Source: a virus
Lineage: Duplodnaviria > Caudoviricetes
Direction: 5' to 3' (one strand)
IMG/VR virus record: IMGVR_UViG_2541047043_000003
Span: 1-64,000 of that record
DNA length: 64,000 bases
Of the stretch, positions 16,135-38,910 are shown piece after piece (positions within the stretch are counted from its first letter, which is position 1; the number at the start of each line of letters is the position of its first letter). The notes under the pieces are model-generated. The model searched no databases. It worked only from the letters and a program-made list of their open reading frames with translations, and was not told where the DNA came from. The position numbers and the translations under genes were made by a program.

Positions 16135-18339
16135 TTGGAAGAATTAGAAAAAGAAGATATCACTTCCGAACTCGCAGAAATAATCTTAGATAAAATTCAC
16201 CTGGCAATGACGAAAGAAAATCCGTCTTGGCAGGAAATGGCGATGAGTGATGGGCCGGACTCACACGAAGAAGAACTAAACTCACTATTAAAAGAAGGGT
16301 TTTTAAAGGTACTAAAACATTCCTCTAAAACTTTGTCGGAAGGGGCCTGTATCCAACTGTCAAAAGAATTTAAAACACTCAAAGCCTCCTATCTTTCAAA
16401 CTATCTAAAAGAAAAATCAAAAGCAGTCCAAACCCCAGAACAAAAAGAAGAAATTCAAAAATCAAAGCTACTACCCGGACAAAAAAGGCAGGGCAACTAC
16501 AAAAAAACGTATCTCCAAGGGATTGAAATCAGAATCGAAAATAAAAAGGGGACATATAGAGAAGGAACCGACTCCCACGGAAAAAAATGGAGAAACAAAA
16601 TCCATAACGACTATGGATACATAAAAAAAACAGACGGCGACCATGTAGACGTATTTGTCGGACCCGACAAAGAATCAAGGGTCGTATTCGTAATCAATCA
16701 GAAAGACAAGGAGGGAAATTTCGACGAACACAAGGTAATGCTTGGGTTTCACGACGAAAAATCGGCCAGAAACGGATATATAAAAAACTATCCGAAAAAT
16801 TGGAAGGGGTTCGGTAGTATCGTCAAATTAACCGTAGGAGAGTTTAAGGAGTGGTTAAAAACCGAAAACACCAAAAAAGAATTAAAAAATCCTAAAATAG
16901 AATTTTTAAAATCAAAACTCTCTCATTTAAGAAGCACACTAAAAAACATAAACACTCCACAAAACAAACTCTTTCAAAAAGAAGAGTATGGAGAAATGGA
17001 GGAAGAGTCCGTCTACAAAAGTCTTCTTTTAGAAGTAAAAAAATCCACGCATCTAATCTCAAACCTACAAAAAGCGGATGTAGGCAGGCCGCCCGATTTA
17101 ATCGGAACCGAAGAAGAATGGAATGACGGGCGGATGCATAAAAAAACGGAAAGCGGTTGGATTACACTCCCAAAAAAGAGAGAGAAAAGAACACCCGAAG
17201 AAACAAAAATTAAAAAACACCCGAAAAAGAAAATAGAAGAAAAACCAAAAAAAGGAAATACTCATCCGACAAAACTTCCCTTTTCACAAATAAGAGTCAT
17301 CGAACAATATACGGCAAAAAAAGACTACGATCGCAATCAAATCGAAACTTTAAAAATTAAAATAAAAAAAAATGGATACGATCCGAGCTTTCCTTTGTCG
17401 GTCGATTTAAAAGAAGGAAAGTGGACCGTTGTTGCCGGTCACCACAGATACGAAGCGGTGCGTGAGCTAATCGAAGAAGGGCATTTGTCGCAAAATATCG
17501 AAATACCGGTAGTCGAAAAAAATTTCGCGTCTAAAAACGATCGGCTGGTTGCACAAATTTCAGAAAATCACAGACGAAACGTACTCGCAACCGACGAAGC
17601 CAAAGCCTACGGGGAAATGGTAAAAAACGGATGGGACGTAAAAAAAATCTCGGAAGAACTAGGAATCAAAGTCGGGGAAGTAAATAAAAGGTTAGCACTC
17701 AATAATTTATCACCTGAGTTATTTGCACTCGTACACAAAAAAGACAGATCTTTGCCTCTTGGAATTGCAGAGGTGATAGGGATGAACGCAAAAGATGCAA
17801 ACGACAAACCCTCTCACACAATGCAAATCAGAGCGTTTAAGTGGTACGCTGAAAATAGGTCCAAATACGGAAGTAGGGGTGCAAGCGTACTCCAAAACTA
17901 TATCAAAGAATTACAAAGTGGAGAATTAGAAAATTTTGATTTTGATTACGTAGCGACGGATATACAAAAAGAGGCACTAAAGAACGTTTCCAAAGAGAAA
18001 GCGTCCGCAAATAAAAAGATGCTTGAGGTCATGCTCGACGGATTAACCAAAAGCATACAAAGGCCGCTTGGCGACAATATCACTTCCCTAAATCCACAGG
18101 TTGTAAAGGAGCTAGCGGCCTCACTCGCACTTAGCGCGGACAAAGGCGTGGAATCGTCTTCTGTACTCGGAAGACTTGGAGTCATAATCCAGGATTTGAC
18201 TTTAATAAAGAATTCGATTCAAAGTAAATTGAAAGAGATCGAAAACGAATCGAGTACACCTCTACTATTTGCAAAAGGTTTTTTACAAAAAATTAAAAAA
18301 ACCCTAGAACTTTCAAAAGGAAAGAAAGTGGAAATCTAA
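16135..18339 (+). CDS. Polyvalent protein: inorganic-pyrophosphatase-like (InPase) domain plus ParB domain
   Basis: GNYKK..IRIENKKG..R.G.D..GK.W...YGYI..TDGDHVDVFVG...FDEHKVMLGF; later VVAGHHRYEA...SENHRR. Confidence 0.8.
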   Translation: MEELEKEDITSELAEIILDKIHLAMTKENPSWQEMAMSDGPDSHEEELNSLLKEGFLKVLKHSSKTLSEGACIQLSKEFKTLKASYLSNYLKEKSKAVQTPEQKEEIQKSKLLPGQKRQGNYKKTYLQGIEIRIENKKGTYREGTDSHGKKWRNKIHNDYGYIKKTDGDHVDVFVGPDKESRVVFVINQKDKEGNFDEHKVMLGFHDEKSARNGYIKNYPKNWKGFGSIVKLTVGEFKEWLKTENTKKELKNPKIEFLKSKLSHLRSTLKNINTPQNKLFQKEEYGEMEEESVYKSLLLEVKKSTHLISNLQKADVGRPPDLIGTEEEWNDGRMHKKTESGWITLPKKREKRTPEETKIKKHPKKKIEEKPKKGNTHPTKLPFSQIRVIEQYTAKKDYDRNQIETLKIKIKKNGYDPSFPLSVDLKEGKWTVVAGHHRYEAVRELIEEGHLSQNIEIPVVEKNFASKNDRLVAQISENHRRNVLATDEAKAYGEMVKNGWDVKKISEELGIKVGEVNKRLALNNLSPELFALVHKKDRSLPLGIAEVIGMNAKDANDKPSHTMQIRAFKWYAENRSKYGSRGASVLQNYIKELQSGELENFDFDYVATDIQKEALKNVSKEKASANKKMLEVMLDGLTKSIQRPLGDNITSLNPQVVKELAASLALSADKGVESSSVLGRLGVIIQDLTLIKNSIQSKLKEIENESSTPLLFAKGFLQKIKKTLELSKGKKVEI

Positions 18340-19485: not shown

Positions 19486-19664
19486 ATACTAATCTACCAC
19501 CTAAAAATCGGACAAGACTCTGATTTTAATTTTGTTTTGAGACGCACAAAACAACCACACACGCTACACTGCTCCGACAAAAACCCCTTTAAAATTAAAG
19601 GACAGGACAAACAAGTCTCCAAACGTTTTTTAGAAAAATCACTTTCCTTTTTAATCATACTTTT

Positions 19665-20111
19665 TTAACTCCAATACCTACCGTGAACGAGGTAAGTCGT
19701 GACCGGTTTCCACTGAAAAAATTCATAACGAAAAACTCTGTAACGAGTATACCAGTCCGGAATATAACAAGAGTTGCATGTGTGAATACAACACGTAGTG
19801 GTGCAACACCAAACAAAGGTGGTGCCACCCACCCAGCAAAGATTAATACTGACACTTCTGGAATAGCCGCCGGGACAAGGAAGACAATCAAACCAAGGCC
19901 CTTTTTGAAAACAGGAATCGCTACCACCGCATTGATTGCAGTCCGTAACCGAATAACCGTAATCAAGATGAGCGTCCACAACGTACCAAGTGTCTCCGAT
20001 AGTGTAAGAGCCTTTTGGAAAAACGTCGTAACGATTCGAACCTAAATTCCCCACCCAATGGCCGCTTGCTCCGCTTACCGGAGAAGAAGGCCCACTCGGC
20101 GGGGTTATGCG
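19665..20111 (-). CDS. Cys-rich (12 Cys) domain, probably expressed as a -1 frameshift extension of the upstream gene
   Basis: Frame open from the slippery site at 20111-20117; P/S/G-rich linker RITPPSGPSSPVSGASG; its GTG is buried in the hairpin. Confidence 0.7.
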   Translation of the reverse strand, partial: RITPPSGPSSPVSGASGHWVGNLGSNRYDVFPKGSYTIGDTWYVVDAHLDYGYSVTDCNQCGGSDSCFQKGPWFDCLPCPGGYSRSVSINLCWVGGTTFVWCCTTTCCIHTCNSCYIPDWYTRYRVFRYEFFQWKPVTTYLVHGRYWS

Positions 20112-20117
20112 AAAGGG
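20049..20117 (-). other. -1 programmed ribosomal frameshift signal
   Basis: C CCT TTC heptamer (20117-20111), 6-nt spacer, long stem-loop 20104-20049. Confidence 0.75.
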
Positions 20118-20881
20118 AGCCAGGTGGCTCCTTCGTTATCGCTCCAATAGGAAAAATTACCTTGAGTTCTAACCCTCCAGTTCTTGCTTGTAGAACCGGG
20201 GGAGGGGGTGGTTTTTAAAAAATCCTTTGATTCAAGGTGTTCGTAAATCCAGTTGATCGCACTGGCAAGAGACTCGTTGTCTAAAATTCCGGGGTTTAAT
20301 TCCACGTCGATTCCGATCAGTTTCGGGTCATAGACGGGTAAAGTGCGAGTAACGTTTGAAATGACACCACCGACACTTGTTTTTTGAAACGATAACAAAC
20401 CGATTCGGTTCGGAGAAACAGAGGGAAGATTTTGGGAATTAACGGATTGTTCGAAAACTCTGGACCTGAAAGTTTTTCTTGTGGGCCTTGTTTGAGGTTG
20501 GAATCTTTCGCTTGAATTAAAAATAGGAACCGCTTTTTCGTCGGTAAGAGAGGATTCTAGAGCAATTTCATAAATACCGACTCGCGAATTCGGATTAGGG
20601 GTTAAAGTTAAAGCGGGAACGATAAAAACGCAGTCGGTTCTTATAAAAATACCGGAACTCACTTGTATCGTATTCGGACCCGTTAAGGAAACTTCAAAAC
20701 CGATTGCTGTATCCGAATCCCTGTTGATCGTTGCAAGGATCGCAGAAAGTAAGGCCGGAACGATCGAGTTTGAACTTTCAGCCCCCGAGAGTCTGTTAAA
20801 ATCTTCTGCTGTGACTTTTTGAAAAAGATTTTGATAATAGACTTTGACTTCGTTACCGGAAATTAAGATTTCAGTTTCCAT
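20105..20881 (-). CDS. Baseplate/tail-fibre protein (likely start ATG 20881, METEIL; 258 aa)
   Basis: Follows baseplate J and gpI-like genes; ends in Asp-box-like YWSDNEGATW. Confidence 0.6.
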   Translation of the reverse strand: METEILISGNEVKVYYQNLFQKVTAEDFNRLSGAESSNSIVPALLSAILATINRDSDTAIGFEVSLTGPNTIQVSSGIFIRTDCVFIVPALTLTPNPNSRVGIYEIALESSLTDEKAVPIFNSSERFQPQTRPTRKTFRSRVFEQSVNSQNLPSVSPNRIGLLSFQKTSVGGVISNVTRTLPVYDPKLIGIDVELNPGILDNESLASAINWIYEHLESKDFLKTTPSPGSTSKNWRVRTQGNFSYWSDNEGATWLPFA

Positions 20882-21470
20882 TTTTAGCTCCAAGAAAAAC
20901 GGCGGTGCCAGCCGCAAGAATTCGATTGAGTTGTGTGATTTGAATGTCTTTAAAAGAAGAAAGGTTTTCGGCGACAATGTAACTCACACCTCTGTCGGGT
21001 GTGACGATACTCGAAACCGAGTTCGTATCGGGACCCGGAAGAAAAAGGCCGGTATCACTAGCCGATACGTCGGTTGCAAACCCGAGTTCGTTACATCGTA
21101 AAACCGCAAAGTCAGGCCTTTGAAAAATCTGTCCGATTTTTGGAATCGTAGGTTCGTTAGAAAGAACGTATCCTAGGATGTAGCCTACAAACTCGGGATC
21201 ATTCATATTCAAAGGTCGCTCGATTCCTAGAAGCTCTGCCCACTTTCTAAGGAAATGACCTTCCGTGTTAGACAAAACCGCGCAGTGTGTGGCAAGTTCT
21301 TGATACCTCAAATGCCACTCAACGGAATTAAAAAGCGCGCCTACGTTTATATCATTGACGTTCGTTGTCGGAAGATACTCGGGACGGGACTTGTCGCCGA
21401 ACAGTTCTTTAAACGTAGGGTCGGTTTCGTTAAACTGAGGGAGTCTTTCTAAAAGTTTATTTAAAGCCAT
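20871..21470 (-). CDS. Baseplate wedge protein (gpI-like)
   Basis: GHFLRKWAELLGIERP...D..F motif; directly after baseplate J. Confidence 0.7.
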   Translation of the reverse strand: MALNKLLERLPQFNETDPTFKELFGDKSRPEYLPTTNVNDINVGALFNSVEWHLRYQELATHCAVLSNTEGHFLRKWAELLGIERPLNMNDPEFVGYILGYVLSNEPTIPKIGQIFQRPDFAVLRCNELGFATDVSASDTGLFLPGPDTNSVSSIVTPDRGVSYIVAENLSSFKDIQITQLNRILAAGTAVFLGAKNGN

Positions 21471-31802: not shown

Positions 31803-32753
<951 letters not shown>

Positions 32754-33826: not shown

Positions 33827-34016
33827 AGGAAAAGAAAAAAATTCATCTTCAAACAAGAACCAGACTCCCGAAGAGTTTCTACTAAAAAAAGAAACTCAAC
33901 TAGGTAAAACGATAACCCCGCGCTTTCGGGAATATTTTTACCGGGAACTAAAAAGAGTCTCAAACCGAACTTTCGAAGACGTTTGGGAGGCCGTAAATGG
34001 GAACACGCGAGCCTGA
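33804..34016 (+). CDS. Small hypothetical virion-module protein
   Basis: Overlaps both neighbours; small pre-sheath gene typical of this module type. Confidence 0.5.
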   Translation: MEPELNLKGKEKNSSSNKNQTPEEFLLKKETQLGKTITPRFREYFYRELKRVSNRTFEDVWEAVNGNTRA

Positions 34017-35808
34017 GTTTTTAGGACGCGGATATATTCAACCCGGAGCGCGCGGTGCGTTTAGAACCAAACCCCAAAGTGCCGGAATCTCCCCCGACTT
34101 AAGCACCCTCATTTTAATCGGACCTTCCGACAACGGATACGACACAAACGACCAAACATTACACGTAACAAAACGAGTATTGGAACTGGGAAGCTCCGAC
34201 GAAGCGAGGTCGGTTCTTTACTCGGGCGACTTAGCCGATGCGGTAATAAACGCATTTTCGCCTTCCAAAGATTCACGATTTGCAAACGGGCCTCAAACCA
34301 TCAAAGCGTTAAATATATCTCCGAACGTTTCCGCAAGCGCACAAGCACCCACAAACGTATCAGGAATATTGAATACGATTAAAGCCACCGTACCGGGACC
34401 GAAAGGAAATCAGATTCGTTTTAGAATCACAAACAACGGAAGTATCATCCAAGTGGGGGATAGCGATCAAATCGTAACCTCTCAAACGATCGAAGCAAAC
34501 GAAATCAGGATACAATACTCAGGAAACGCGGGAGCTGCAAACCTAACGTTTAACGGAATAGAATTACGAGTCACGTTATCAGGAACCCCTGCAACGGACA
34601 CGAGTCGAGATTTGGTCGCCTTGGTAAAAGACTACGAAACTCTATCGGAACTGGTTGCGTATATTTCCAGTCAAAACGGATATAGCGCGGTTTTGTTGTC
34701 GCAACCCGATCGTAAAACTTACCACCTAGATTACATATCCGCAACAGACGCGGTGGATATAAAAACTCAAAACTTCACCCTAAAATCTCTTCTCCACCAG
34801 CAAGAAACTTTTTTTCTCTCAAACGGACTCGCTGAAATTGTCGCAACTTTGGAGAGAAAACCCCTTTCGGATATGGCTAGTTTTACGTATCTCACGGGCG
34901 GAAGAACGGGAGTCGTAACGACGAAAGCGTATTTAGATGCGATTGATACCGTATTTGAAACCGAGATTGCAAAAGGATTTTACGTCAACGTCTGCACTTC
35001 CATCGAACCGGTAAGACTTTATTTAGCCGACAAACTCTCAATCGGGAATTCAGCCGAAGGCTCGGATGAAAGATTCGGTGGAGCTGGACTTGATTTAGAC
35101 AAGTCAATCGATGCGAGGATTGACGATATAAAGACGACGAATTCGGAATATATGGTACTCGGACTTTCTCCTGTTACGAGATACAAAGCAGACAGAGTCA
35201 ATTTAAAAACATATCCGGGTTGGATGTTATCGGTACTGCACAACGCAATCAAGGCGGCGGCAAACGTAAGAGAGACGGTAACATACAAGGATTTGAATAT
35301 AGTAGACGCGCCCGAAATTCTTTCCAAAACACAAATTAAAAAAGTATTAAGAGCGGGCGGACTTGTAGTCACAAGAAAACCGAATAGCGGACCGTTTAAA
35401 ATCGAACTCGCGCTTACCAGTTATCAGGCCCAAAACCTAATCAAAAACCAGGCATCAACGGTTTGTACAGCGTTAGCTTTGGTAAAAGATTTTAGGGAAT
35501 GGTTAAATGTTACCTTTACGGGAGAGGTACCGACAGATCCAAACGCACTCGGAACCAATTTAACGGACGCGGACATTCGAACCGCTGTAACACAACGATT
35601 TCGTAATGTATATATTCGCCAATACGGCTGGCTGACTCGAAACATCTACACCGGCGAAGACGCATTTGACGAAAACTTCGAAATACGACGCGACGGAGAC
35701 GTAGCGTATTTCGTATTCCCCGACGGTAAAATCGTAACTCCGATCAATTACATGTTCTTTCTCTTAAACTTAGACGTCGTTCGCGGTGCTGCAACGGGAG
35801 GAAATTAA
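33997..35808 (+). CDS. Contractile tail sheath protein
   Basis: YIQPGA, LIG...G, SGDLADA, PG.KGN.I, YLTGG..G; 603 aa, followed by tube gene. Confidence 0.88.
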   Translation: MGTREPEFLGRGYIQPGARGAFRTKPQSAGISPDLSTLILIGPSDNGYDTNDQTLHVTKRVLELGSSDEARSVLYSGDLADAVINAFSPSKDSRFANGPQTIKALNISPNVSASAQAPTNVSGILNTIKATVPGPKGNQIRFRITNNGSIIQVGDSDQIVTSQTIEANEIRIQYSGNAGAANLTFNGIELRVTLSGTPATDTSRDLVALVKDYETLSELVAYISSQNGYSAVLLSQPDRKTYHLDYISATDAVDIKTQNFTLKSLLHQQETFFLSNGLAEIVATLERKPLSDMASFTYLTGGRTGVVTTKAYLDAIDTVFETEIAKGFYVNVCTSIEPVRLYLADKLSIGNSAEGSDERFGGAGLDLDKSIDARIDDIKTTNSEYMVLGLSPVTRYKADRVNLKTYPGWMLSVLHNAIKAAANVRETVTYKDLNIVDAPEILSKTQIKKVLRAGGLVVTRKPNSGPFKIELALTSYQAQNLIKNQASTVCTALALVKDFREWLNVTFTGEVPTDPNALGTNLTDADIRTAVTQRFRNVYIRQYGWLTRNIYTGEDAFDENFEIRRDGDVAYFVFPDGKIVTPINYMFFLLNLDVVRGAATGGN

Positions 35809-35810
35809 AC

Positions 35811-36242
35811 ATGGCAAAAAGTTCAAAACCGAATCCAAGAGTACTCACCGGAAACGACGCAATCGTTAAAATCAACGGACAATCCGTCGGGTTTATGAAA
35901 TCTTTGCGAGTAAATATAAACAACAATCAAGGAAGAATTCAAGCGATCGGAAAAAGAAAACCGAAAGGACTTAAATCCCTCGACTGGCAAGGAACGGCGT
36001 CGGGAGAGTTCCATATATTGACAGTACCAACCGATGGGGTCGTAGTAATCGATACGTATGACGATGACAACGCGGACGACTTGTACGATATTTTAGTTTT
36101 AGACAAAAAAAGCGGGAAACGAGTGGGACTCTTAACGGGGGGAGTGAACACAGAAGGGTTTAGTATTCAAAATAACGAAATGAGTGGAAGGGAAATTGAA
36201 TTCGAACTCGTGGATTGGGAACCGATGGAGGCATTTAACTAA
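35811..36242 (+). CDS. Tail tube protein
   Basis: VLTGN.AIVKING..VG...IG motif; follows sheath. Confidence 0.85.
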   Translation: MAKSSKPNPRVLTGNDAIVKINGQSVGFMKSLRVNINNNQGRIQAIGKRKPKGLKSLDWQGTASGEFHILTVPTDGVVVIDTYDDDNADDLYDILVLDKKSGKRVGLLTGGVNTEGFSIQNNEMSGREIEFELVDWEPMEAFN

Positions 36243-36523
36243 AACGTAATACGTCTATTTTTTTAATGAATTTTATCGATATATATTTGGCTGTTATATA
36301 AAGCAAGGGCTACCCCTTTCGAAGTAGCCCCGCACCCTACACGTTACCATAGGGGGATATACTTTAAAAGCGTCGTCGTAGAAAGGAAATTTGTAAAGTA
36401 AAAATTGTATCGATACAATCATGCTAAAAAAATGAAACGGTTCGGCCCCAAATATAGAATAACGACCCTAACTATATACACTTCACATTCTCCGATAACA
36501 ACATTTCAATTAAAATCTCGAAT

Positions 36524-37177
36524 ATGAGAATTCTGGAACCAAATAAACGAGTCACACTTTCGGCGAAATACGAAAGTGAAAGTTATTCTTTCGAGGCGGA
36601 CATTGCAGATCCGAGTACGGAGCTTGATATAGAGATAGGAGTAGCGAAACGATTGGGAGGTGCGTCCTTAGAATCGATTCCAAATACGACGTACGGTTAT
36701 ATATTTGCGATAACGACCCTCGATCACGTAATTAAAGAGATACCGCCCGACTTTCCGATCGAAGAGATAGTTTCGTTTGAACAAATACGAGACAAAGAAT
36801 TCGTATTAAGACTATTTAATGAATATAAGAAGAAAGAAAACTGGTTTCGATCGGAGTTAAAAAAAAATAGGGACGCTCGACGCACTCTCAAACGAAAAGA
36901 ACCTGCTCGATCTTTTTTTAATGAAGGAGTTTCAAATTCTACCGAAGGGGGTAAGGCATCTGGGGAATCTATTTCTAGAACAAAAGAGGTTTTTGCTGGA
37001 GGCGACGTCGAGAGTGGATCTAACGAGTTTAAAGACCAAAACTCGACTATTGTCGGAGAAAAAACAAGTGGAGAGGATGAAATCGGAGGAGTTTTTAACG
37101 AACATAAGCCCGACGCTGATTCGTATCCTGGAAGAAGAGGCAGGGTTTTCACAAGAACAGATCCACGCGCAAGGTGA
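36524..37177 (+). CDS. Tail assembly chaperone (zero-frame product)
   Basis: Between tube and tape measure; A9 run at 36859-36867. Confidence 0.7.
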   Translation: MRILEPNKRVTLSAKYESESYSFEADIADPSTELDIEIGVAKRLGGASLESIPNTTYGYIFAITTLDHVIKEIPPDFPIEEIVSFEQIRDKEFVLRLFNEYKKKENWFRSELKKNRDARRTLKRKEPARSFFNEGVSNSTEGGKASGESISRTKEVFAGGDVESGSNEFKDQNSTIVGEKTSGEDEIGGVFNEHKPDADSYPGRRGRVFTRTDPRAR

Positions 37178-37238
37178 ACAAAAAAGGGAAGAGATTTTGA
37201 AACGAATCGATGACGAATTAAAAATACATGGCCTCTGA
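36861..37238 (+). CDS. Tail assembly chaperone frameshift extension (+1 frame)
   Basis: +1 frame opens inside the A9 run; LFLMKEFQILP...L..EQ resembles the second chaperone ORF of SPO1/Twort-like phages. Confidence 0.65.
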   Translation, partial: KKIGTLDALSNEKNLLDLFLMKEFQILPKGVRHLGNLFLEQKRFLLEATSRVDLTSLKTKTRLLSEKKQVERMKSEEFLTNISPTLIRILEEEAGFSQEQIHAQGEQKREEILKRIDDELKIHGL

Positions 37239-38910
37239 ATCCTTAGAAATAAAAGTACACGCAAAACCCGATTTTAAGGAAGTCGATCAAGGTTTTGATC
37301 GAATCGCCAAAAAATTTAAAAAAGGATTCTCTCTTTTTGGAAGTGGCGCGGGTGGAAGTGAAGACCAAAATTCAAAAAACAAAAAATCAAAAAAGAAAAG
37401 AAAACTAGAGGCCGCTTCCAAATACGCGGGGGGAAGTGCGTACGCGTCGAAAATCGGTGCCGACGGATCGGATTTAGACGAAACCGGCCACGGTGGATTT
37501 TACAATACTCTTGATAAAAAGATTTCAGCGGCTAAAGACCTGTTTTCGAAAAAGAAAAAAAAGAAAGAAGAAGACGAGGAAGAAAAGACTTCCTCGACAA
37601 AACCGGACTCATTCAAACAACTTCAGATCCAAAAATCGGAAATTAAAATCCAACACGCACATTTTGATAAAGGCGGGTTTGGAGGACTTGGGGGAAGCGG
37701 TGGAAATACAAATCCAAGTGAAGCGGGAGAAAGCGGAGGCGGCCTTAAATCCAAATTTCTTTCCGCTTTAGGTGCGACAATTCCGATCGCCGGAGCCGCG
37801 TTTGCAGTTGCGGGTGGGGTATTAAAAACAATCTCAGCAATCGGAGAACAGTACCACGCTTCCATGCAATCGCAAGCGTCTACAATCGGAGCCACAGGCG
37901 GATACGTGGGAGGAGGGGGAGGTTATTTTTCCAACTCGGAACTTGCACAAGCAAACGTATTTAAAAGTAGAGTGAGTGGGGAAAGTATATACCAAAAAGG
38001 TAATTTAATAGATTCAAATACGATTCAGTTTGCGGCGTCTCAAGGAAAGGGAATTGCAGACGTAGTTAAGGAACTGGAGACGATTCGAAAAGATTCAAAA
38101 AATGCGGATTTAGGATATTTAAGGGGAGGAGCGGCCGCTTCAGGGTTTACAGGACTTAGACAATCCGAATATATATCGAAACTTGCATCAATTTCTGAAA
38201 ATTTAAGAAACAAAGGCTTTTCCGGCGACATTTCCGATTTTGCAAAATTTTCATCCGGATTCAATAGAAACGATTCCAAAATGGACCCTTCCAGACGAAT
38301 GGCTCTCGCGGAAGACCTTTCCAACCAAGGAAGAAGTGGAGCGTTTGGAGGCGGAATTTTCGGTTCTCTCTCTATGAGTCATGCACTCGGAGCAAACGGA
38401 GGGGATATTTTTAAAGCGATAGAGGAGTCGGAACTAAGTCCCGGAAAATACATGTCGTCCGCGCTTTCAAGTCTTGATCCAAAAACAAGAGGACTTGTTC
38501 ACAAATTACAGGGTGGAAGTTTTTCGGAAATGTCGAATATGAGTTTCGGGTACAAAAACTTTTCATCCGACAATTCTCGAATAAGCGCGGGATACAATAA
38601 GGGTCTAGAATTAGATAACCGAAAAAAAGAAACTTTTGCTTCGGACGTAGGAGCGCAAGCCGCCGAAGTTGGGTACAACTTAAATACGGCGATGATTCAA
38701 GTTTTTAAAGAAAATAAAAATGCGATGCTTGGTTTGACTGAAGTCGTTTCGAATATAGAAACAAAACTTCTTCCGGTAGTATCCACTTCAATTACAGGAA
38801 TTGTCACGGGAGTAGAAAAGTTGTGCGAGTACTCAGAACCTGTTTTCGGAGCGATTTCCAAATTAATGTCATTTTCAAATCCGGCCGGTTTTTTAGTTCG
38901 TACCAAATAG
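37228..38910 (+). CDS. Tape measure protein
   Basis: Gly/Ala/Ser-rich helical protein after the chaperones. Confidence 0.75.
   Translation: MASESLEIKVHAKPDFKEVDQGFDRIAKKFKKGFSLFGSGAGGSEDQNSKNKKSKKKRKLEAASKYAGGSAYASKIGADGSDLDETGHGGFYNTLDKKISAAKDLFSKKKKKKEEDEEEKTSSTKPDSFKQLQIQKSEIKIQHAHFDKGGFGGLGGSGGNTNPSEAGESGGGLKSKFLSALGATIPIAGAAFAVAGGVLKTISAIGEQYHASMQSQASTIGATGGYVGGGGGYFSNSELAQANVFKSRVSGESIYQKGNLIDSNTIQFAASQGKGIADVVKELETIRKDSKNADLGYLRGGAAASGFTGLRQSEYISKLASISENLRNKGFSGDISDFAKFSSGFNRNDSKMDPSRRMALAEDLSNQGRSGAFGGGIFGSLSMSHALGANGGDIFKAIEESELSPGKYMSSALSSLDPKTRGLVHKLQGGSFSEMSNMSFGYKNFSSDNSRISAGYNKGLELDNRKKETFASDVGAQAAEVGYNLNTAMIQVFKENKNAMLGLTEVVSNIETKLLPVVSTSITGIVTGVEKLCEYSEPVFGAISKLMSFSNPAGFLVRTK

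Follow-up and report, generated by a model that had tools for sequence, protein, structure and literature searches.

A conserved -1 frameshift signal predicted to append a cysteine-rich domain to a probable tail-fibre or baseplate protein of Leptospira phages

Two open reading frames (ORFs) that adjoin one another out of frame, ORF1 and ORF2, were analyzed in a 64,000-nucleotide (nt) stretch of viral DNA (record IMGVR_UViG_2541047043_000003), hereafter the window. All coordinates are positions in the window, and the features of the recoding site are read on the - strand. The 3' end of ORF1, a gene of 258 amino acids (aa), reads ...tgg ctC CCT TTC gca TAA, giving a protein with the C terminus ...YWSDNEGATWLPFA*. 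Just before its stop codon it thus carries C CCU UUC, a slippery heptamer of the X XXY YYZ type in the register of ORF1, followed by a short spacer and a G+C-rich hairpin (Table 1). Counted from the final base of the heptamer, the -1 frame (20111-19668) has 148 open codons, coding first for a linker, RITPPSGPSSPVSGASGHW..., and then for a domain with 12 cysteines. The GTG from which the ORF list starts this domain, at position 20054, sits inside the 3' arm of the stem. A ribosome that changed frame at the heptamer would therefore make a protein of 405 aa, i.e., 257 + 148. An earlier note on this DNA had described the end of the 258-aa gene, the in-register heptamer, the GC-rich stem-loop 6 nt after it, the buried GTG, the 148-codon frame with its 12 cysteines, and the 405-aa product; each agreed with the sequence when it was translated and folded again, at exactly the positions given there. 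We conclude that ORF1 and ORF2 very probably constitute one recoded gene, expressed by canonical programmed -1 ribosomal frameshifting into a 258-aa and a 405-aa product.

The hairpin stretch contains 69.6% G+C, compared with 38.4% for the window, and 0.006% of 56-nt windows reach that value. Its predicted folding energy is -34.8 kcal/mol, versus a mean of -22.2 kcal/mol for shuffled sequences (z score, -4.17), and none of 200 shuffles was as stable.

Table 1. Positions of the recoding site, its neighbours, and the ORF2 loci of relatives (window coordinates, except for the last two rows, which refer to the records named)
Feature	Position	Strand	Remarks
ORF1, 258 aa, 0-frame product	20881-20105	-	ATG 20881; TAA 20107-20105; phrog_4351
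Possible Shine-Dalgarno-like upstream stimulator, GGAG	20128-20131	-	Ends 10 nt before heptamer
Slippery heptamer C CCU UUC	20117-20111	-	X XXY YYZ register of ORF1
Spacer GCA UAA, 6 nt	20110-20105	-	Contains the ORF1 stop (20107-20105)
Putative stimulatory hairpin, 56 nt, G+C-rich	20104-20049	-	Basal stem CCCCGCC / GGUGGGG
Linker, first 19 codons of the -1 frame (RITPPSGPSSPVSGASGHW)	20111-20055	-	Pro/Ser/Gly; encoded by spacer and hairpin
Rest of ORF2, predicted Cys-rich all-beta domain	20054-19665	-	From the GTG used by gene callers; stop 19667-19665
Baseplate_J wedge protein	22678-21476	-	PF04865, E 2.9e-9; phrog_6 'baseplate wedge subunit'; same operon
199-aa phrog_4015 protein	21470-20871	-	Between Baseplate_J gene and ORF1; 11-nt overlap with ORF1 start
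DUF6171 protein, 54 aa, Cys-rich (CxxC...CxxCxC)	19658-19494	-	PF19668, E 3.9e-8; directly after ORF2
phrog_4073 gene	19485-19150	-	Downstream of DUF6171 gene
ParB-like ORF	16135-18339		
Sheath and tube region	33997-38910	+	
ORF2 in phage records	L001 2501-2941; L002, L003 2450-2893		KF114877, KF114879, KF114880
Loci L044-L046	L044 2792-3162; L045 233-990; L046 1183-1571		Distant A+T-rich metagenome contigs

The junction was compared in 46 loci (L numbers), found in 15 of 114 genomes of the family, belonging to 4 of its 14 genera, in 3 phage records, and in 21 viral and 7 metagenome contigs. They yielded 31 distinct junction sequences; the loci are related to each other, and counts of junctions are not independent. 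The heptamer CCCTTTC was invariant in all 31. The 0-frame stop lay exactly one codon past it, at +4 from the slip base, in every junction (TAA in 30, TGA in 1), and the hairpin consistently started 6 nt past it, or 7 nt in the minimum-energy fold of L045. Because this arrangement was kept in all 31 distinct homologous junctions examined, it goes beyond what chance would give. The -1 frame was closed by a stop 4 to 25 codons upstream of the slip site and was open for 139 to 197 codons downstream of it wherever ORF2 was complete, and the two ORFs are therefore never fused in frame. The earlier note had held that in-frame fusion of the two parts in homologues, or lack of the heptamer and hairpin there, would speak against a frameshift. 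Fusion was seen in none of the 46 loci, and the signal was kept in all of the junctions. Database searches agreed: an ORF2 search restricted to proteins of 260 to 2000 aa gave no matches, phmmer against 1.84 billion representative sequences gave 11 hits to ORF2, none of them fused to ORF1, and all 15 ORF1 homologues found within a search range of 141 to 452 aa measured 186 to 273 aa, with none longer than 273.

Conservation of the heptamer extended to positions that are free to vary in the ORF1 protein. The codon preceding CCT was CTC, CAC, TAC, CGC, TTC, or ATC, coding for L, H, Y, R, F, or I, yet its third base, the first X of the motif, was C in every junction. No synonymous change was seen at the third base of CCT or of TTC either, while the third positions of the preceding 18 codons had a mean entropy of 1.19 bits. 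Coding for ORF1 cannot by itself account for the invariant third bases of the heptamer.

The frame under selection was determined with Nei-Gojobori counts on 25 distinct sequences sharing the 56-nt hairpin. In the last 18 codons of ORF1, the ratio of nonsynonymous to synonymous polymorphism (pN/pS) was 0.35 in frame 0, compared with 1.1 and 1.6 in the other two frames. In codons 4 to 18 of the linker, all of which lie upstream of the GTG in the stem, it was 0.19 in frame -1 versus 2.4 and 2.2 in the others, and the first 40 codons of the ORF2 domain gave 0.26 in frame -1. Within the inner hairpin, the entropy at the three codon positions of the -1 frame was 0.47, 0.31, and 1.47. The coding signal thus changes frame at the heptamer, and the linker pN/pS, together with the codon-position entropy, indicates that translation in the -1 frame includes the hairpin itself and begins at a point that has no start codon.

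Homologous hairpins folded stably in 14 of 14 cases, at -28 to -45 kcal/mol (z scores of -2.6 to -6.2); the hairpin of L019 folded at -37.1 kcal/mol, and z scores for L044, L045, and L037 ranged from -3.0 to -3.9. In an alignment of 17 sequences, 86.4% of pair cells were paired, compared with 40 to 54% when the partner strand was slid by 1 to 3 columns. Changes on both sides of a pair were found in 5 of 22 pairs, and the covariation score was reached by 1 of 500 shuffles. The inner stem was solved differently between lineages. The three distant contigs L044-L046 have an ORF1 of only 50 to 57 aa and a linker of 39 to 40 codons, and they retain CCCTTTC GCATAA. Behind it stands an unrelated stem of 8 to 10 perfect pairs at the same 6-nt spacing (z scores of -3.5 and -3.9). 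The observation that the position and, apparently, the function of the hairpin are conserved when its sequence is not constitutes the strongest single line of evidence for a recoding signal.

The proposed mechanism is the following. Most ribosomes would translate ORF1 and terminate at the UAA codon, releasing the 258-aa protein. A fraction of them would slip back by one base when the P site holds tRNA-Pro paired to CCU and the A site holds tRNA-Phe paired to UUC, and the slipped tRNAs would re-pair with CCC and UUU. The hairpin 6 nt downstream would promote the slip, perhaps helped by the adjacent stop codon and by the upstream GGAG, and the shifted ribosomes would go on to read the hairpin-encoded linker and then the Cys-rich domain, producing the 405-aa protein. 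We infer that both products are made, in some ratio to one another.

The tRNA set of the host genome is compatible with such a slip. It comprises a single tRNA-Phe (GAA) and two tRNAs-Pro (GGG and UGG). After slippage, tRNA-Pro GGG would form a full Watson-Crick match on CCC, and tRNA-Phe would be placed on UUU, a codon that it normally decodes. By wobble rules CCC and UUU are cognate for these tRNAs, so that both would still sit on cognate codons after a -1 slip. A shift in the +1 direction, like that at the influenza UCC_UUU_CGU site, was rejected, as the register is C_CCU_UUC and the downstream frame is -1. Within the 8 to 14 nt searched upstream of the heptamer, GGAG was found in 21 of the 31 junctions, exactly 10 nt away in 19 and 13 nt away in 2, and was absent from 10. 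It overlaps Gly codons that are conserved as part of a ...YWSxDxGxxW... motif, taken here to be Asp-box-like, and it may be a stimulator as in dnaX or simply reflect those codons. The site shares with the signals of Escherichia coli dnaX and of IS3/IS911 a tripartite layout of heptamer, spacer of about 6 nt, and stem-loop, and the Shine-Dalgarno-like stimulator of dnaX has a spacing of about 10 nt, as has GGAG in 19 of the 31 junctions. It differs from dnaX in the heptamer, which is A AAA AAG there, and in the outcome: the shifted frame of dnaX stops almost at once and gives a shorter product, whereas 148 residues would be added here. In the accessible text of Sharma et al. 2014 (PMC4066793), C_CC.U_UU.C is among the patterns that 'exhibit high level frameshifting' in E. 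coli, and the class H_HH.U_UU.Y ranks there among the most efficient.

An alternative explanation is that ORF2 is a separate gene of about 129 aa, started at the GTG in the 3' arm, perhaps by termination-coupled initiation, with the hairpin controlling access to the start. A GTG occupies this codon in 23 of the 31 distinct junctions, in L001 it is preceded at 7 nt by GGAGG, and gene callers, including the public predictions P0003, P0004, P0007, and P0009, as well as the ESM Atlas record, begin ORF2 there. However, the GTG is missing from the remaining 8 junctions (L006, L018, L019, L020, L026, L042, L044, and L045), and in 4 of the 31 (L019, L020, L042, and L045) the whole stretch from the -1-frame stop upstream of the slip site to the conserved GHW motif is free of ATG, GTG, and TTG. 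L006, L019, L020, and L026 carry GCG in place of GUG opposite a G of the 5' arm, which retains the pairing at the cost of a Val-to-Ala change; the base pair is therefore preserved, and the start codon is not. Initiation at the GTG also fails to explain why purifying selection acts on the -1 frame of the 15 linker codons upstream of it (pN/pS of 0.19), and it leaves the invariant heptamer, its invariant synonymous positions, and the fixed one-codon distance to the stop without a reason. Nor does it suit the 39- to 40-codon linkers of L044-L046, of which that of L045 has no canonical start. A separate gene is accordingly improbable. The ATA or GTA at linker codon 2 was rejected as a start as well, L002, L013, and L040 having GTA, which is not a start codon.

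Another alternative is that the frame changes at the RNA or DNA level, whether transcription slips, indels vary the phase, or the sequencing or assembly went wrong, or that ORF2 is what is left of a once-fused gene in decay. An indel would indeed leave adjacent coding regions one base out of frame, and one database protein, P0004, resembles a copy broken further downstream. Yet the longest homopolymer at the site measures 3 to 4 nt, which is too short for polymerase slippage, and the same arrangement recurs in 31 distinct sequences from independent assemblies. ORF2 is moreover under purifying selection (pN/pS of 0.26) and more conserved than ORF1, and no fused, ancestor-like form turned up in the database searches, which makes this origin very improbable. 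We judge it just as hard to believe that the heptamer, stop, and hairpin serve mainly as an RNA element, acting in transcript stability, processing, or pausing, with ORF2 expressed by non-canonical initiation. A very stable hairpin directly after a stop codon would fit such a role, and no Rfam family matched positions 19600-20900 at E <= 1. Against it, no U tract follows the stem, for which reason an intrinsic terminator was rejected too, and the element doubles as coding sequence in the -1 frame. Furthermore, its invariant part is exactly the tandem-slippage heptamer in the ORF1 register, and the replacement hairpin of L044-L046 keeps the 6-nt spacing that is typical of -1 stimulators.

Several observations nevertheless weigh against programmed frameshifting. 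Besides the frequent GTG and the relatedness of the loci, the hairpin of L042 is weak (z score of -1.28, with 22 of 200 shuffles folding as well). The consensus kept by RNAalifold has only 11 pairs, its covariation term is -0.04, and covariation is thus modest; proline (CCN) and glycine (GGN) codons would by themselves be expected to produce part of the stem. The starts called for two metagenomic proteins, P0005 and P0006, lie a few codons ahead of the slip site, and a third, P0013, was called with its own Met near the domain, so the domain may be initiated independently in some remote relatives (P0013, possibly P0005 and P0006). Finally, the trans-frame protein and its transcript are predicted from the DNA sequence.

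ORF1 is probably a distal baseplate or tail-fibre protein, as suggested by synteny and by weak fold matches. It matched phrog_4351 end to end (2-260 of 260, E 7e-134), and the annotated members of that family therefore also stop at this point; no Pfam family was found for it. An AlphaFold model built from 13 sequences had a mean predicted local distance difference test score (pLDDT) of 69. Its fold matches were weak, though alike in theme: the tail fibre of cyanophage A-1(L) (8kec; E 3.6e-3, template modeling [TM] score of 0.25), the receptor-binding proteins of lactococcal phages p2 and 1358, SPP1 gp22, and the baseplates of phi812 and HFTV1. The position of the gene, directly after those for Baseplate_J and the phrog_4015 protein, is the J and I position expected of tail fibres. 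Two results limit the case for a fibre role. All of the fold hits miss the threshold of E <= 0.001, and tblastn did not find the neighbour genes of the window, including Baseplate_J, in L044-L046. A phrog_4073 homologue does lie downstream in L045, and the ORFs upstream of ORF1 in L044 gave no informative PHROG match.

ORF1 falls into length classes of about 50 to 57, 253 to 261, 286, and 359 aa, and this variation fits a modular, fibre-like body. The homology of the short forms to the longer ones is suggested by their position and by a shared ...YAYW...PFA end; when the 49-aa ORF1 of L044 was compared with the ORF1 profile by hhalign, only its 19 C-terminal residues were aligned, with a probability of 10% and an E value of 0.003. 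The 359-aa form, in L042 (1851-2927), repeats a motif of about 30 residues (...IGSLASL...ALNF.Y...) three times in tandem, and the same locus has the weakest hairpin.

The domain encoded by ORF2 was predicted to be all-beta with long strands (model from 22 sequences; pLDDT of 80.9, predicted TM score [pTM] of 0.55). ORF2 had no Pfam family at E <= 0.1 and no PHROG family, its best sequence-profile match in the PDB had an E value of 0.17 or more, and Foldseek of the model against the PDB and BFVD returned nothing at E <= 0.001, the best TM scores being 0.24 to 0.30. The ESM Atlas gave no usable match. Elongated sheets of Cys-rich viral glycoproteins, with a TM score of about 0.24, were not considered meaningful as fold relatives, and two of the phmmer hits, P0010 and P0011, were set aside as compositional, being long, repetitive Cys-rich proteins matched over 11 to 13 short stretches. 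An immunoglobulin (Ig)-like C-terminal module of the Big_2, I-set, or FN3 kind, as in the frameshift-added domains of Fraser et al., was not found for ORF2 in Pfam, the PDB, or BFVD.

The cysteines of the domain occurred in even numbers in all 30 distinct complete peptides (12 in 25, 10 in 3, 8 in 1, and 4 in 1), and L015 lacks exactly two of them. The count was likewise even in 10 of 10 database proteins, and the values observed included 10 and 6, i.e., numbers that are not multiples of four. The earlier note had left open whether the domain was metal binding or disulfide rich, and the even parity favours disulfide pairs over metal sites. It also suits an extracellular tip of the virion, and the putative disulfide-rich beta domain would then be the outward-facing end of a baseplate-distal fibre. 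The suggestion, made in the same note, that the module might be variable did not hold within the genus, where all 12 paired comparisons showed higher conservation for ORF2 than for ORF1 (e.g., 77 versus 59%) and the central block of ORF2 was constant. It held only at greater distance, where that block is replaced by different Cys-rich blocks of 52 to 82 residues between conserved flanks, GHWxGN..RYDVFPxGSYxxGDxW on the N-terminal and NTCxxPNWxTxYxxxxYxFxxW...G on the C-terminal side. P0004, a database protein of 106 aa, is a copy of ORF2 whose C-terminal third is in a different frame (...GGGFVFVAHQLVV...); either the gene is broken in the genome it comes from, or the assembly is at fault.

Gene order around the site (Baseplate_J, phrog_4015, ORF1/ORF2, DUF6171, and phrog_4073) is conserved. 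The part from Baseplate_J through phrog_4015 to ORF1 was found in most loci with enough flanking sequence, and in 42 of 46 loci the gene directly after ORF2 is one for a DUF6171 protein. The equivalent position in P2-like phages is that of a chaperone for fibre assembly. By analogy, the DUF6171 protein could help the Cys-rich domain to fold or to become oxidized.

A more far-reaching proposal combines these elements, and we consider it rather unlikely as a whole. The slip would be the sole route to a new, disulfide-knotted receptor-binding fold, with the ORF1 body being dispensable. In relatives with an ORF1 of 50 to 57 aa, frameshifting would gate translation and so set the share of tipped fibre subunits, or tune it by way of hairpin stability or tRNA supply. 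The virion would display a mixture of short and long subunits, and the DUF6171 protein would be a dedicated folding or oxidation helper.

Frameshift-extended structural proteins are known from other phages. In the accessible part of the review by Atkins et al. 2016 (PMC5009743), C-terminally extended minority forms are described for gene 10 of T3/T7, for Lactobacillus phage A2, and for Listeria phages, with -1 slippage and a 3' structure in A2 and T3. As in the major head and major tail genes of A2, the capsid gene 10A/10B of T3/T7, and the capsid and tail genes of the Listeria phages A118, A500, and PSA, the slip site here is found where a structural gene is about to end; a shared N-terminal body and a predicted longer form with a C-terminal extension are further likenesses, the longer form being the minority one in those phages. 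The genes concerned code for capsid or tail-tube proteins there, usually with an Ig-like extension, whereas the present gene stands in the tail-fibre position and its extension is a Cys-rich beta domain. The tail assembly chaperones G/GT of lambda and most tailed phages likewise depend on a conserved -1 frameshift, close to where a tail gene ends, with a short and a long form, made at a fixed ratio according to the same review as far as its text is accessible. Unlike G/GT, ORF1 follows the Baseplate_J gene on the - strand, while the sheath and tube region is on the + strand, where a separate candidate chaperone pair (36524-37238) precedes a gene for a 560-aa protein. This pair consists of a 217-aa ORF that overlaps a 105-aa ORF, the frames differing by +1, upstream of the probable tape-measure gene, and it may be the tail-assembly-chaperone recoding pair of the prophage.

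The mechanism and the logic of an extended minority form are thus already known. What is new is the gene class, namely, a gene that follows the baseplate wedge genes, in the place of a tail fibre; the added module, which is non-Ig, disulfide rich by prediction, and without a matching fold; and the host group, phages of Leptospira. In the accessible text of the recoding review (PMC5009743), 'tail fiber/fibre', 'baseplate', and 'receptor binding' do not occur. 'Frameshift' does not occur in the accessible parts of the virion proteomics paper on LE3 and LE4, which are other phages (PMC6078989), or of the comparative-genomics paper on Leptospira that describes LE1-like prophages (PMC4758666). 'Leptospira' and 'baseplate' are absent from the accessible text of the GeneTack paper (PMC3711429), and 'tail fiber' and 'baseplate' are absent from that of the PRFect paper (PMC10885494). 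Within those portions, none of the five papers reports a frameshift-extended product at the tail-fibre position of a baseplate module, and literature searches found no description of this recoding site in the text accessible to them.

The nearest deposited relatives of the window are the LE1-like Leptospira phage-plasmids KF114877, KF114879, KF114880, and KX656785. The site adds a well-supported recoding signal to these elements, in which almost all structural genes are annotated as 'hypothetical'. The 148-residue domain lacks a matching coding sequence (CDS) in each of the three phage records inspected: in KF114879 and KF114880, the annotated CDSs leave ORF2 uncovered between them, and ORF2 of KF114877 is overlapped by a CDS at its 3' end only. 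If the long form is indeed the host-contacting end, it would be an obvious target in work on leptophage host range. The combination of C_CCU_UUC with a hairpin that is translated into a linker represents, in addition, a compact natural case of dual constraint on RNA and protein.

The strand opposite to the recoded gene, the + strand, carries the adjoining baseplate, head, sheath, and probable tape-measure genes. The Baseplate_J operon on the - strand and a + strand gene for a 636-aa protein that matches baseplate proteins (phrog_4033/phrog_975) diverge from a 57-nt gap (22678/22736), an unusual split of the baseplate module. Between the head genes and the sheath gene, a 316-aa ORF on the + strand (31803-32753) matches the transposase family phrog_3300 (E 1.5e-112) and may represent an insertion sequence inside the structural module.

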